64,000 bases of DNA from the IMG/VR virus record IMGVR_UViG_3300032225_002272; one strand, written 5' to 3'. Position 1 is the first letter of the stretch; the number at the start of each line of letters is the position of its first letter. This stretch comes from an uncultured virus (IMG/VR IMGVR_UViG_3300032225_002272). Its lineage: Duplodnaviria > Heunggongvirae > Uroviricota > Caudoviricetes. Both the position numbers and the translations under genes were made by a program. Below the pieces are notes generated by a model that saw only the letters and a program-made list of their open reading frames with translations, was not told the DNA's origin and searched no databases. This document shows positions 55,027 to 62,846 of this stretch, in pieces.

Positions 55027-55346
55027 TAACCCGCTACTTTTTTTATTTCACCAAAAACAGATTTTCTTGGTTGTCTCAACTTTACATCATTGTGTGAGTT
55101 ATCGGTGTAATCAACAACAACAGATTCTTGCATTTGATAAGTTGTTCCAGCATCTCCACTTGAACTCATATTTTTTGTTTTCTTTTTAGGATTAAAGACT
55201 TCTTCTAACTTTTGATAAGTTGTCTCCCAAGTATTTCTTGGCTCACCTTGTCTTTCAAGAAAAGCAAGAATTGAATCTTTACTAATCTCACTAAATTTTT
55301 TCCCAGAAGCTTGAACTGCCTCTACTAACGAATTAAATGTTGACAT
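55026..55346 (-). CDS. hypothetical protein
   Basis: Coupled ORF. Confidence 0.65.
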   Translation of the reverse strand: MSTFNSLVEAVQASGKKFSEISKDSILAFLERQGEPRNTWETTYQKLEEVFNPKKKTKNMSSSGDAGTTYQMQESVVVDYTDNSHNDVKLRQPRKSVFGEIKKVAG

Positions 55347-60578: not shown

Positions 60579-60962
60579 ATGGAACAAAAGAAAAGACCTG
60601 ATAGCTTTGTAGAAAACAGATTATCTAAGAGATATCCAACGGAAATTGGCGCACCAAAATTTGAACCTGATAATATTTCTCTTTTTAAAATTGAAAAAAC
60701 TTCTAAAATAAAAAAATACTATTCTTCAAGATTTGAAGAGATGACTAAAGAGTATGAAAAGTTAATGTCAGAAATTCAAATGAATGAAAGACTTTATACG
60801 GCTTCACACAACTTTGAACCAATCTCTGGCGAAACTTACCACTTATATAAAAAGGAATCCGGTCAAGAATTTCTTTCTTTAATATCTCCGGAACAATGGG
60901 CAAAATTTGATTTCATCGGATCTTATAGATTCTTATCAGACGGTAGATGGGAGGCTATTTAA
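60579..60962 (+). CDS. DUF2452-like protein
   Basis: YPTEIGAPKF, FEPISGETYHLY, FLSLISPEQW. Confidence 0.7.
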   Translation: MEQKKRPDSFVENRLSKRYPTEIGAPKFEPDNISLFKIEKTSKIKKYYSSRFEEMTKEYEKLMSEIQMNERLYTASHNFEPISGETYHLYKKESGQEFLSLISPEQWAKFDFIGSYRFLSDGRWEAI

Positions 60963-62563
60963 CCTACCCACCCTTCTTTCAAACTTACAGTCTTATTGAA
61001 ACTTTTACCGTCAGTGTCTAAAATATAATACCCTTTTCTCATCATTTGAACTGGTGCCTTGACTTTTAAAACATGAGGTTCAAAGATTGCCTTATCATTA
61101 ATTATAAGTGAATCTGGGTTGATATAATTGATAAAATCATCTTCATTTTTATCAGGTGATTCATCATTGAATAATCTATCATATTCATTTACATTCATTC
61201 TAACTCCGTGTTCAGCAGATACCCAGTGAATGGTTCCTTTAATCTTTCTTTCAATAAACATACCTGATCTTGTTAAAGGATCGTAAGTACATCTAATCTC
61301 AATGATTTCTCCGAATTCATCTTTGATAACTTCATTAGCCATAATAACATAAGCACCTTTTAATCTTACTTCACCACCTAATTTCAATCTATGAAATTTA
61401 TTATTAGCTTCTTCTCTAAAATCTTCTCTTTCAATAAATAATTCTCCATTAAAAGGAATCATTCTAGTACCAGCACTTTCATCACCAGGATTATTTTCAA
61501 CTTCAACCATTTCAGTTCCGTTATCCCAATTAGTAATAACTAACTTAACTGGATCCATGACACCCATTAATCTGTTGGTAACTATATTCAAATCAGTTCT
61601 TAAACATTCTTCTAAAAGTAAATAAGAAACAACCGATTCTTTTCTGGTAACAGAAATTCTATCACAAAAATCTTTAATAGCATTTGGTGTAAAACCTCTT
61701 CTTCTTAAACCGGAAATAGTAGGCATTCTTGGATCATCCCAACCATCAACATAAGATTCTTCAACCAATCTTTTTAATTTTCTCTTTGACATAACTGTAT
61801 AGTCAATGTTCAAACGAGCAAACTCAGTTTCTTCTGGAAGTGGATTTTCTAAATCACAATTTTCTAATACCCACATATATAAAGGTCTATGAACTTCAAA
61901 TTCTAAAGTACATAAAGAATCAGTGATACCTTCTTTATAATCTGAAAGTGGATGAGCAAAGTCATACATTGGATAAATCTTCCAAGTATCACCAGCTCTG
62001 TGGTGTGACTTAGATATTATTCTATAAAGAACCGGATCTCTTAAAATCATATTAGGAGAAGTCATATCAATATTGGCTCTTAAAATTTTAGAACCTTCAG
62101 AGAATTCACCTAATCTCATTCTATTAAATAAGTCTAAGTTTTCTTCTATACTTCTAGATTTATAAGGTGAGTCTTTACCAACTGAAGTTGGAGTTCCTTT
62201 TAAGTTAGCAATTTCTTCACTGGTTGAATCATCAACATAAGCTAATCCTTTCTTAATTAAAGTAACAGCACAATCATAAAGAAAATCAAAATAATCAGAT
62301 GTATAGAAAATGTTGGCTGGTTTGTAACCTAACCATTCTATATCTTTTATAATTGATTCAACAAAGTGAGTATCTTCAGTAGTTGGATTTGTATCATCAA
62401 ATCTCAAGTTACAAGGTCTATTATATTTTTCAGCCAAGCCAAAATTTAGTATAATGGATTTAGCGTGACCCAGGTGTAGCAGACCATTGGGTTCAGGAGG
62501 AAATCTTAATGTTAGTTTATCAAGATTGTCTTTTTCTAATATTTTATCTTCAATGAAATTCAT
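60959..62563 (-). CDS. glnS: glutaminyl-tRNA synthetase
   Basis: RFPPEPNGLLHLGHAK, LRFDDTNP, IYPMYDFAH, CTLEF, MSKR, GWDDPRMPT, KGTIHWVS. Confidence 0.96.
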   Translation of the reverse strand: MNFIEDKILEKDNLDKLTLRFPPEPNGLLHLGHAKSIILNFGLAEKYNRPCNLRFDDTNPTTEDTHFVESIIKDIEWLGYKPANIFYTSDYFDFLYDCAVTLIKKGLAYVDDSTSEEIANLKGTPTSVGKDSPYKSRSIEENLDLFNRMRLGEFSEGSKILRANIDMTSPNMILRDPVLYRIISKSHHRAGDTWKIYPMYDFAHPLSDYKEGITDSLCTLEFEVHRPLYMWVLENCDLENPLPEETEFARLNIDYTVMSKRKLKRLVEESYVDGWDDPRMPTISGLRRRGFTPNAIKDFCDRISVTRKESVVSYLLLEECLRTDLNIVTNRLMGVMDPVKLVITNWDNGTEMVEVENNPGDESAGTRMIPFNGELFIEREDFREEANNKFHRLKLGGEVRLKGAYVIMANEVIKDEFGEIIEIRCTYDPLTRSGMFIERKIKGTIHWVSAEHGVRMNVNEYDRLFNDESPDKNEDDFINYINPDSLIINDKAIFEPHVLKVKAPVQMMRKGYYILDTDGKSFNKTVSLKEGWVG

Positions 62564-62581
62564 AATGTTTATATTTTTTAG

Positions 62582-62653
62582 TTGTCTCGCCAGGATTCGA
62601 ACCTGGACTCTTTCCGTTCAAAGCGGCTTGTGTTGCCCTTACACCACGAGACA
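62582..62653 (-). tRNA. tRNA-Gln(UUG), weak anticodon stem
   Basis: TGTCTCG/CGAGACA acceptor (U1-A72), loop CT-TTG-AA, GGTTCGAATCC. Confidence 0.8.
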
Positions 62654-62659
62654 TTGTTG

Positions 62660-62731
62660 TTGCTCCACTTGGACTCGAACCAAGCTCATCTGTTTCAAAG
62701 ACAGATATGATCACCCATATACTATGGAGCA
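62660..62731 (-). tRNA. tRNA-Gln(UUG)
   Basis: TGCTCCA/TGGAGCA acceptor, TCTGT-CTTTGAA-ACAGA, GGTTCGAGTCC. Confidence 0.92.
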
Positions 62732-62733
62732 AT

Positions 62734-62767
62734 AAAAAACCCGAATCAATTAGATTGATTCGGGTTT
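62734..62767 (-). terminator. attenuator terminator upstream of tRNA-Gln/glnS
   Basis: AAACCCGAATCAAT-CTA-ATTGATTCGGGTTTTTT, ending 2 nt before tRNA-Gln. Confidence 0.85.
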
Positions 62768-62795
62768 GTAAAGTTTAGACAATACGATACCATTA

Positions 62796-62846
62796 TCAAT
62801 CTGTTGGATTAATTTGTTGTTGTTGGTATTGTGATGTTGTTCTCAT
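62796..62846 (-). CDS. Gln-rich attenuator leader peptide
   Basis: MRTTSQYQQQQINPTD*; five CAA codons. Confidence 0.8.
   Translation of the reverse strand: MRTTSQYQQQQINPTD

Follow-up and report, generated by a model that had tools for sequence, protein, structure and literature searches.

A probable glutamine-specific transcription attenuator upstream of tRNA-Gln genes and glnS in a tRNA operon of an uncultured virus

We analysed a stretch of 64,000 nt from an uncultured virus (IMG/VR IMGVR_UViG_3300032225_002272), which in its full length is referred to as the window. Its minus strand encodes two tRNA-Gln(UUG) genes and the glutamine--tRNA ligase gene glnS behind a short glutamine-rich open reading frame (ORF), termed leader 2, and an intrinsic terminator, termed terminator 2 (Table 1). 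These genes form the distal part of a tRNA operon that begins with another leader ORF and terminator (leader 1 and terminator 1). The glnS product reached 656.2 bits against TIGR00440 (cut-off 425.8), which places it among GlnRS proteins, and matched PF00749 (tRNA-synt_1c, 5.9e-97), PF03950 (1.4e-25) and PF20974 (2e-16), with the class I E/Q catalytic domain and both anticodon-binding domains present. No terminator was found in the window's gap between the last tRNA-Gln gene and glnS. The original prediction for this locus had described a 16-codon minus-strand ORF with five CAA codons, a terminator whose U-tract ends just short of tRNA-Gln(UUG), a second tRNA-Gln(UUG) and glnS, and all of these elements were located where it had placed them.

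Table 1. Features of the two-tier tRNA operon in the window, in order of transcription.
Feature	Position	Strand	Details
Operon promoter, Bacteroidetes sigma-A type	63419-63389	-	TTTG 63419-63416, 19-nt spacer, TATATTTG 63396-63389
Leader 1 ORF	63341-63243	-	MKNLNLNIVNPQPQVVIDQDPGSKEANYVVLS, 32 codons; core PQPQVVIDQDP at 63311-63279
Leader 1 antiterminator 5' strand	63267-63260	-	GGCUAACU
Terminator 1	63218-63181	-	12-bp stem 63218-63191 and U-tract; -18.0 kcal/mol
Antiterminator partner in terminator 1	63214-63207	-	AGUUAGUC
Atypical tRNA-Pro(UGG)-like gene	63170-63096	-	ARAGORN tRNA-Pro(tgg), relaxed threshold only
tRNA-Asp(GUC)	63034-62961	-	
tRNA-Pro(UGG)	62952-62874	-	
Leader 2 ORF	62846-62796	-	MRTTSQYQQQQINPTD; ATG 62846 to TGA 62796, 16 codons, read from sequence
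Region 1 (anti-antiterminator 5' strand)	62829-62807	-	AUACCA 62829-62824 and AUUAAUC 62813-62807, around CAA run
Region 2	62802-62787	-	AGAUUGAU 62802-62795 over stop codon; UGGUAU 62792-62787
Region 3 (terminator 2 5' arm and loop)	62767-62751	-	ACC 62765-62763 and AUCAAUCU 62759-62752
Region 4 (terminator 2 3' arm)	62750-62737	-	
Terminator 2	62767-62734	-	Stem AAACCCGAAUCAAU / AUUGAUUCGGGUUU, 14 bp, 3-nt loop, U6 tract ending 62734
tRNA-Gln(UUG) copy 1	62731-62659	-	2 nt after U-tract
tRNA-Gln(UUG) copy 2	62653-62581	-	
glnS, glutamine--tRNA ligase	62563-60959	-	534 aa; 17 nt past last tRNA-Gln

All five glutamine codons of leader 2 (62831-62829 and 62825-62814) are CAA, and its UGA stop lies at 62798-62796. 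Glutamine accounts for 5 of the 16 residues as compared to 2.8% of codons in the 58 long ORFs of the window, in which 411 of 461 Gln codons are CAA. Two (CAR)4 runs were observed in the window (GC content 29.2%), with 0.05 expected; the other such run is located at 55112-55123 (+). The 143-nt leader 2 region folds with a z-score of -4.3.

Four segments of the leader 2 transcript, termed regions 1 to 4, were found to pair in alternative ways, as region 2 has two possible partners, region 1 or region 3. The exact complementarity of AGAUUGAU with AUCAAUCU noted in the original prediction was found; the antiterminator is longer than the 8 bp given there, with GGU (62791-62789) pairing to the ACC of region 3 for a total of 8 + 3 bp. 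This 2:3 duplex has an energy of -11.6 kcal/mol in the window, compared to a shuffle mean of -4.2, and a fraction of 0.003 of 300 shuffles was as good. The pairing of regions 1 and 2, which was absent from the original prediction, forms an anti-antiterminator from AUUAAUC:GAUUGAU and AUACCA:UGGUAU around the CAA run, and this leader hairpin has an energy of -9.8 kcal/mol in the window.

Searches with glnS provided 9 IMG/VR loci and 80 metagenome loci. Loci with glnS of at least 61% identity were taken as phage-type, and 54 cellular-type loci of about 55% identity served as controls; duplicates (L012, L016 twice, L025 and L032) and cases too near to a locus end (L005, L013, L020 and L036 at position 62) were removed. 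In the phage-type loci 23 of 26 tRNA-Gln genes that stand first in their run were preceded by a short ORF rich in Gln and by a terminator, whereas this was true for none of five in the cellular-type loci. The three misses were L036, L037 and L015 at position 898, the last of which lies behind a leader 1 with merely 2 Gln in 7 residues. The resulting 23 distinct leaders (alignment A1) are from huge-phage contigs and represent about 6-8 lineages. All of them have an ATG, 2-7 consecutive Gln codons with further Gln codons nearby and a strong terminator, which in most cases ends 2-3 nt ahead of the first tRNA-Gln. An ATG-started ORF runs across the Gln codons in the Gln frame in 23/23 leaders, and in 0/23 and 1/23 in the other two frames, while the peptides vary between QYQQQQ(Q), QQIQQQQ, FQQQQQQQ and IQQQQQQQ. 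Gln-run leaders upstream of tRNA-Gln, for which conservation among related phages had been proposed as a check on the original prediction, were found for 23 of the 26 genes. When IMG/VR was scanned for the core leader motif, 6 contigs were obtained, 4 of which were already included, and therefore the exact motif is confined to this clade.

In the 54 cellular-type loci (CAR)4 runs were absent upstream of glnS, and the single one present (L089) is located downstream. Four phage-type glnS loci without upstream tRNA-Gln (L009, L027, L034 and L037) have no leader, and therefore the leader goes with the tRNA-Gln array and not with glnS. In all 23 loci glnS is found downstream of the array on the same strand, at a distance of 17-33 nt in 13 of them and of 175-1400 nt in the other ten (L010, L011, L015, L017, L021, L022, L026 and L029-L031), with a terminator inside the gap in one locus of the 23. 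Eight of the ten long gaps carry same-strand ORFs of at least 60 aa (none in L015 and L021), and L011 has an ORF at 480-1020 with an HNH-like Cys/His motif, recognised by eye, between tRNA arrays.

The antiterminator duplex was present in all 23 leaders and starts 9-18 nt past the last Gln codon. All 23 also retain the 1:2 hairpin, which stalling of a ribosome in the Gln run would disrupt. For each leader, the segment after the run was compared with the terminator 5' arm and loop of its own sequence against 300 shuffles; p was at most 0.02 in 20 of 23 leaders, and the median z was -3.35. The duplex is retained through G-U and other changes in L002, L006, L022 and L029. In L011, L030 and L031 it is made of unrelated letters, and there the leader's own pair ranks first in the cross matrix by row as well as by column. 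On the MAFFT alignment 84.7% of cells in the antiterminator columns were paired, as compared to at most 57.8% with a slid partner. For the anti-antiterminator columns the value was 78.9%, which was equalled by 0 of 500 shuffles, and four pairs had changed on both sides, which was equalled by 1 of 500. An example is AUACCA:UGGUAU of the window, which reads AUUCCA:UGGAAU in L008. RNAalifold on 16 core sequences recovered the inner 1:2 helix in 16/16, and of the 8 terminator pairs that it found 5 show compensatory changes. Terminator stems were full in every leader folded singly, with letters varying between sequences; the 82.7% of cells paired in the terminator columns of the MAFFT alignment is an underestimate of these stems.

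The spacing of these helices was compatible with a ribosome footprint. In folds of the leaders before the terminator is made, 193 of 248 region-2 nucleotides were paired, and the partners of all 193 lie under a ribosome stalled in the Gln run. We then modelled the ribosome by masking nucleotides -15 to +12 around the A-site codon in transcripts that end at the terminator loop. With the ribosome on any Gln codon, the antiterminator was part of the minimum-energy fold of 23/23 leaders. When the ribosome was placed on the stop codon, the terminator arm was less paired with upstream sequence in 22 of them and equally so in one; in the core group the UGA stop itself is located inside region 2.

Leader 2 is the second tier of a two-tier tRNA operon, an arrangement that was not part of the original prediction. 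The operon promoter is of the Bacteroidetes sigma-A type, for which passages of two papers give the consensus TTTG / TAnnTTTG (PMC7366714, PMC9723704), and its boxes are also found upstream of leader 1 in L001-L004 and L006-L008. The Pro/Gln/Asp core of leader 1 is kept in twelve distinct relatives (e.g. PQPQDQDP in L001), all of which have an antiterminator of the GGCUAACU:AGUUAGUC type. It starts 8-11 nt past the core in ten of the twelve; for the remaining two, L002 and L026, the core end was miscalled by the script. In the window leader 1 folds with a z-score of -4.4 and its Pro and Gln codons are paired with GGCUAACU. The tRNA species encoded downstream of it are exactly those for Pro, Asp and Gln, and in L008 and L015 leader 1 also precedes tRNA-Gln. 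Two of its three Pro codons are CCG, a codon that makes up 17 of 516 Pro codons in the long ORFs of the window, and such use of rare codons may sharpen the sensor. The first gene behind terminator 1, the tRNA-Pro-like gene, was missed by default ARAGORN and by the Rfam tRNA model and gave only a weak Rfam tmRNA match; read from the sequence, it has an apparent C at position 33 of the anticodon loop.

The Gln unit is nested in the operon of the window, while in L008, L010, L017, L022 and L029 it has its own TAnnTTTG-type promoter. A promoter between terminator 2 and tRNA-Gln was ruled out for lack of room, and a sigma-70-like match at 62799-62772 (9/12) was at shuffle level (39 matches found, 33 expected).

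The window region matches two uncultured-phage records, LR745206.1 (634,780 bp) and LR756502.1 (642,428 bp), with 75-77% identity. Huge phages of more than 634 kb were assigned to the Mahaphage clade, with predicted replication in Bacteroidetes, in a section of PMC7162821. The two records have 61 and 50 Rfam tRNA matches, respectively, and every array that starts behind a terminator there has a short ORF with residues matching the array. The leader THKNFSKSHKWF (HKFW) precedes His, Phe, Trp and Lys tRNAs; SKSSSRSSS precedes Arg(ACG) and Ser(UGA) tRNAs; SYESYYEE precedes Glu and Tyr tRNAs; ISIAVIGNGAGAI (I/G) precedes Ile, Gly and Met tRNAs; and MNLNMTMNLTLNVVNITL (N/L/T/M/V/I/R) precedes a large array of Asn, Arg, Leu, Val, Ile, Thr and Met tRNAs. 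These five further units per genome (in L092-L094 of LR745206.1 and L099-L101 of LR756502.1) make seven with the Pro/Gln/Asp and Gln units. In both genomes the true pairing of leaders with arrays gave the single best matched fraction of 5040 permutations, the two tests not being independent as the records are related. A lone tRNA-Met behind a terminator (L096) has no leader ORF, and for isolated tRNAs in L095, L097, L098, L102 and L103 no unit was found in the scans.

A short motif after the leader ORF, GUAUUGUCU, is located at 62784-62776 (-) in the window and in columns 113-121 of alignment A1. Its UUG is invariant in 23/23 leaders, divergent ones included; being complementary to CAA, it may pair with the Gln run. 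As a promoter the motif was rejected, as by eye it does not fit TAnnTTTG. The invariant UUG, together with the presence of glnS in the same operon, could also be read as pointing to protein-mediated control, in which the choice between terminator and antiterminator would be swayed by GlnRS or a different phage protein bound to the leader RNA, without any sensing by ribosomes. The leader could in that case act as a mimic of tRNA-Gln with its CAA/UUG-rich segment and GUAUUGUCU, in the manner of thrS, or be bound in a PyrR/TRAP-like manner. We consider this very unlikely, as a conserved ATG and frame would be superfluous, arrays without a nearby aminoacyl-tRNA synthetase gene share the leader design with other amino acids, and the four glnS loci without tRNA-Gln genes have no leader.

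An RNA-only sensor similar to a T-box was also considered, in which the CAA run would pair with the UUG anticodon and UGGU (62792-62789) with the 3' end of uncharged tRNA-Gln, so that the antiterminator would be stabilised. T-boxes control aminoacyl-tRNA synthetase genes, UGGU falls in region 2, and the A that follows the acceptor stem in the tRNA-Gln genes is compatible with its pairing. Against Rfam, the segment 60000-64000 at E <= 1 solely gave tRNA matches, two weak CRISPR-repeat matches and one weak tmRNA match, and no T-box. At the gathering score the whole window gave 4 tRNAs only, with no leader family and no riboswitch. The leader is also just about 115 nt in length and lacks a Stem I, it has an in-frame ATG in 23/23 cases, and the multi-amino-acid leaders of the sister arrays cannot be single specifiers. 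A T-box-like sensor is therefore hardly to be expected at this locus.

Found together at this locus, and kept in its relatives, are an ATG-started ORF rich in one codon, an intrinsic terminator, an antiterminator sharing a strand with it and a 1:2 hairpin with spacing that fits a ribosome footprint, that is, the features by which an attenuator is recognised. The trp/his/pheST-style layout claimed in the original prediction is therefore not only present but conserved (23 of 26 tRNA-Gln genes, with frame and antiterminator in 23/23). From these sequence features and their conservation we conclude that the element is probably a glutamine-specific transcription attenuator of the ribosome-mediated (leader-peptide) kind, acting as the second tier of the tRNA operon. 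For this the leader would have to be translated, translation would have to be coupled to transcription, and read-through should respond to the charging of tRNA.

According to this model, host RNA polymerase would start at the operon promoter and reach leader 1, with its Pro, Gln and Asp codons, and terminator 1. Read-through of terminator 1 would give the tRNA-Pro-like gene, tRNA-Asp and tRNA-Pro, followed by leader 2. When Gln-tRNA(Gln) is ample, the ribosome would proceed to the UGA inside region 2 (AGAUUGAU..GGU) and mask this region, upon which regions 3 and 4 would form the terminator and transcripts would end at about 62734. A shortage of charged tRNA-Gln would cause the ribosome to stall on the CAA run and so to melt the 1:2 hairpin. 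Its leading edge would then reach about 10 nt past the run, leaving region 2 free to pair with region 3, the 5' arm of the terminator; no terminator would form, and the two tRNA-Gln(UUG) genes and glnS would be transcribed. Their products would lift the level of charged tRNA-Gln and close the loop. Like the original prediction we infer a response to the supply of Gln-tRNA, for which anticodon nucleases are a conceivable trigger.

Several observations weigh against this interpretation. As independent support, the leaders count as about 6-8 lineages rather than as 23 cases, and the Gln runs are degenerate in L015 (QYQQQK) and L026 (QYQQF). By eye, CAG codons in the run show no relation to whether the array includes tRNA-Gln(CUG). 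Leader 2 begins 27 nt past tRNA-Pro and has no promoter of its own in the window. It also has no Shine-Dalgarno sequence, and loading of ribosomes on the nascent tRNA precursor is an assumption. The antiterminator is weaker in L008, L006 and L031 (p = 0.06-0.11). Compensatory changes, likewise proposed as a check on the original prediction, were seen in the terminator (5 pairs) and in the 1:2 hairpin (4 pairs) but remained at shuffle level in the antiterminator columns, where 2 both-side changes were reached by 277 of 500 shuffles; the signal is weak there because the alignable core is conserved in sequence. When RNAalifold was applied to the MAFFT alignment of all 23, it gave no pairs, because MAFFT misaligns the divergent members.

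In the comparison of folds with and without a ribosome mask, also suggested at the outset, the free and the stalled RNA could not be told apart for 12 of the 23 leaders. In these 12, the window included, the free truncated RNA forms the antiterminator without a ribosome, and therefore equilibrium folding does not explain basal termination, which must depend on folding kinetics or co-transcriptional order or on a ribosome covering region 2. The inseparable folds and the strong hairpin of terminator 2 (-17.5 kcal/mol) would also suit a constitutive terminator or insulator that fixes the ratio of Asp- and Pro-tRNA to Gln-tRNA and glnS, with the ORF being incidental or encoding a micropeptide with another role. 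Such a terminator would leave unaccounted for that ORF, frame and Gln run are kept in 23/23 leaders, that antiterminator and anti-antiterminator persist despite sequence change, and that the 14 leader-array units match best of 5040 permutations per genome. We thus regard it as improbable and favour the glutamine-specific attenuator.

Some further features of the window are listed here. A T4 Rnl1-like RNA ligase is encoded at 10141-8804 (-), with a Pfam match of 1e-19 and 124 bits against NCBIfam, which is under the cut-off of 242, and it could bear on tRNA repair. DnaK/Hsp70 is encoded at 8394-6508 (-) and a ClpB-type AAA+ chaperone at 50905-48773 (-). An odd tRNA-like gene at 52861-52774 (-) has a long variable arm and an anticodon called as four letters (cgta), and scores under the Rfam tRNA gathering score. 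The segment upstream of it, to about 52985, contains a TATCTTTG box and about 100 nt with long-range complementarity.

In the trpL, his, leu and pheA leaders of E. coli, an ORF with cognate codons is combined with four segments, of which 1 and 2 form a hairpin, 2 and 3 the antiterminator and 3 and 4 the intrinsic terminator; segment 2 becomes free when the ribosome stalls in the codon run and is covered when it has reached the stop codon. Leader 2 shows the same four-segment layout and codon run. It differs in that it would regulate tRNA and synthetase genes instead of biosynthetic enzymes and would sense glutamine, and in residing in a phage and having a Bacteroidetes-type promoter, no Shine-Dalgarno sequence and no match to an Rfam leader family. 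To our knowledge there is no other Gln-specific leader. Attenuation of an aminoacyl-tRNA synthetase gene is known from E. coli pheST with its pheM leader. His-codon leaders upstream of hisS/hisZ in bacilli are treated in a section of PMC2965389. In these cases, as in leader 2, the leader codons are those of the controlled synthetase's own amino acid. In contrast to them, the phage terminator is first followed by the cognate tRNA genes, and glnS without tRNA-Gln has no leader.

The thr and ilv leaders are multivalent, and leader 1 resembles them in interleaving Pro, Gln and Asp codons. Tandem attenuators have been described for Salmonella mgtCBR in part of PMC3641672. The phage operon likewise has two attenuator-like elements in series on one transcript, whereas its tiers are separated by tRNA genes. 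A shortage of any of Pro, Gln and Asp would open the first tier and only a shortage of Gln the second. T-boxes sense tRNA charging by direct binding of tRNA and choose between terminator and antiterminator for aminoacyl-tRNA synthetase and related genes. The physiological purpose would be the same for the phage attenuator, in which a conserved leader ORF of the translated type stands in place of any T-box match.

Clues for leader-peptide attenuation upstream of amino-acid operons of a flavobacterium are given in passages of PMC9723704. Searches of full-text literature turned up neither a Gln leader nor leader-peptide attenuation of tRNA genes; the original prediction likewise knew of no described phage attenuator of tRNA genes. 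In PMC7162821 neither 'attenuat' nor 'leader' occurs in the main text, to which this search was confined.

The Gln unit might, tentatively, be one node of a phage-wide controller of decoding speed, in which each tRNA array, here joined by a synthetase gene, follows a leader spelled in the codons of that array, and the loss of specific host tRNAs is detected and repaired in the course of infection. Such losses could arise from a mismatch in codon usage (29% GC genome), from degradation of host tRNA or from anticodon-nuclease defence. With nested units, a shortage of the tRNA for one amino acid would open only the sub-operon needed, and the controller would work alongside the T4 Rnl1-like RNA ligase of the same window.

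Leader-peptide attenuation is a textbook mode of control for amino-acid biosynthesis and a few synthetase genes. In the switch proposed here it would be wired to tRNA genes, so that the sensor, i.e. the speed of the ribosome on CAA, would read the output, charged tRNA-Gln, directly. The element would be an example of nested two-tier attenuation within a tRNA operon and part of a system to which all tRNA arrays with a leader in these roughly 640-kb phages seem to be subject. Such compact amino-acid-specific switches may be of use for synthetic biology in Bacteroidetes. For the phages themselves, the element would offer a testable answer to the long-standing question why tRNA and synthetase genes are so numerous in large phages and how their expression is timed.

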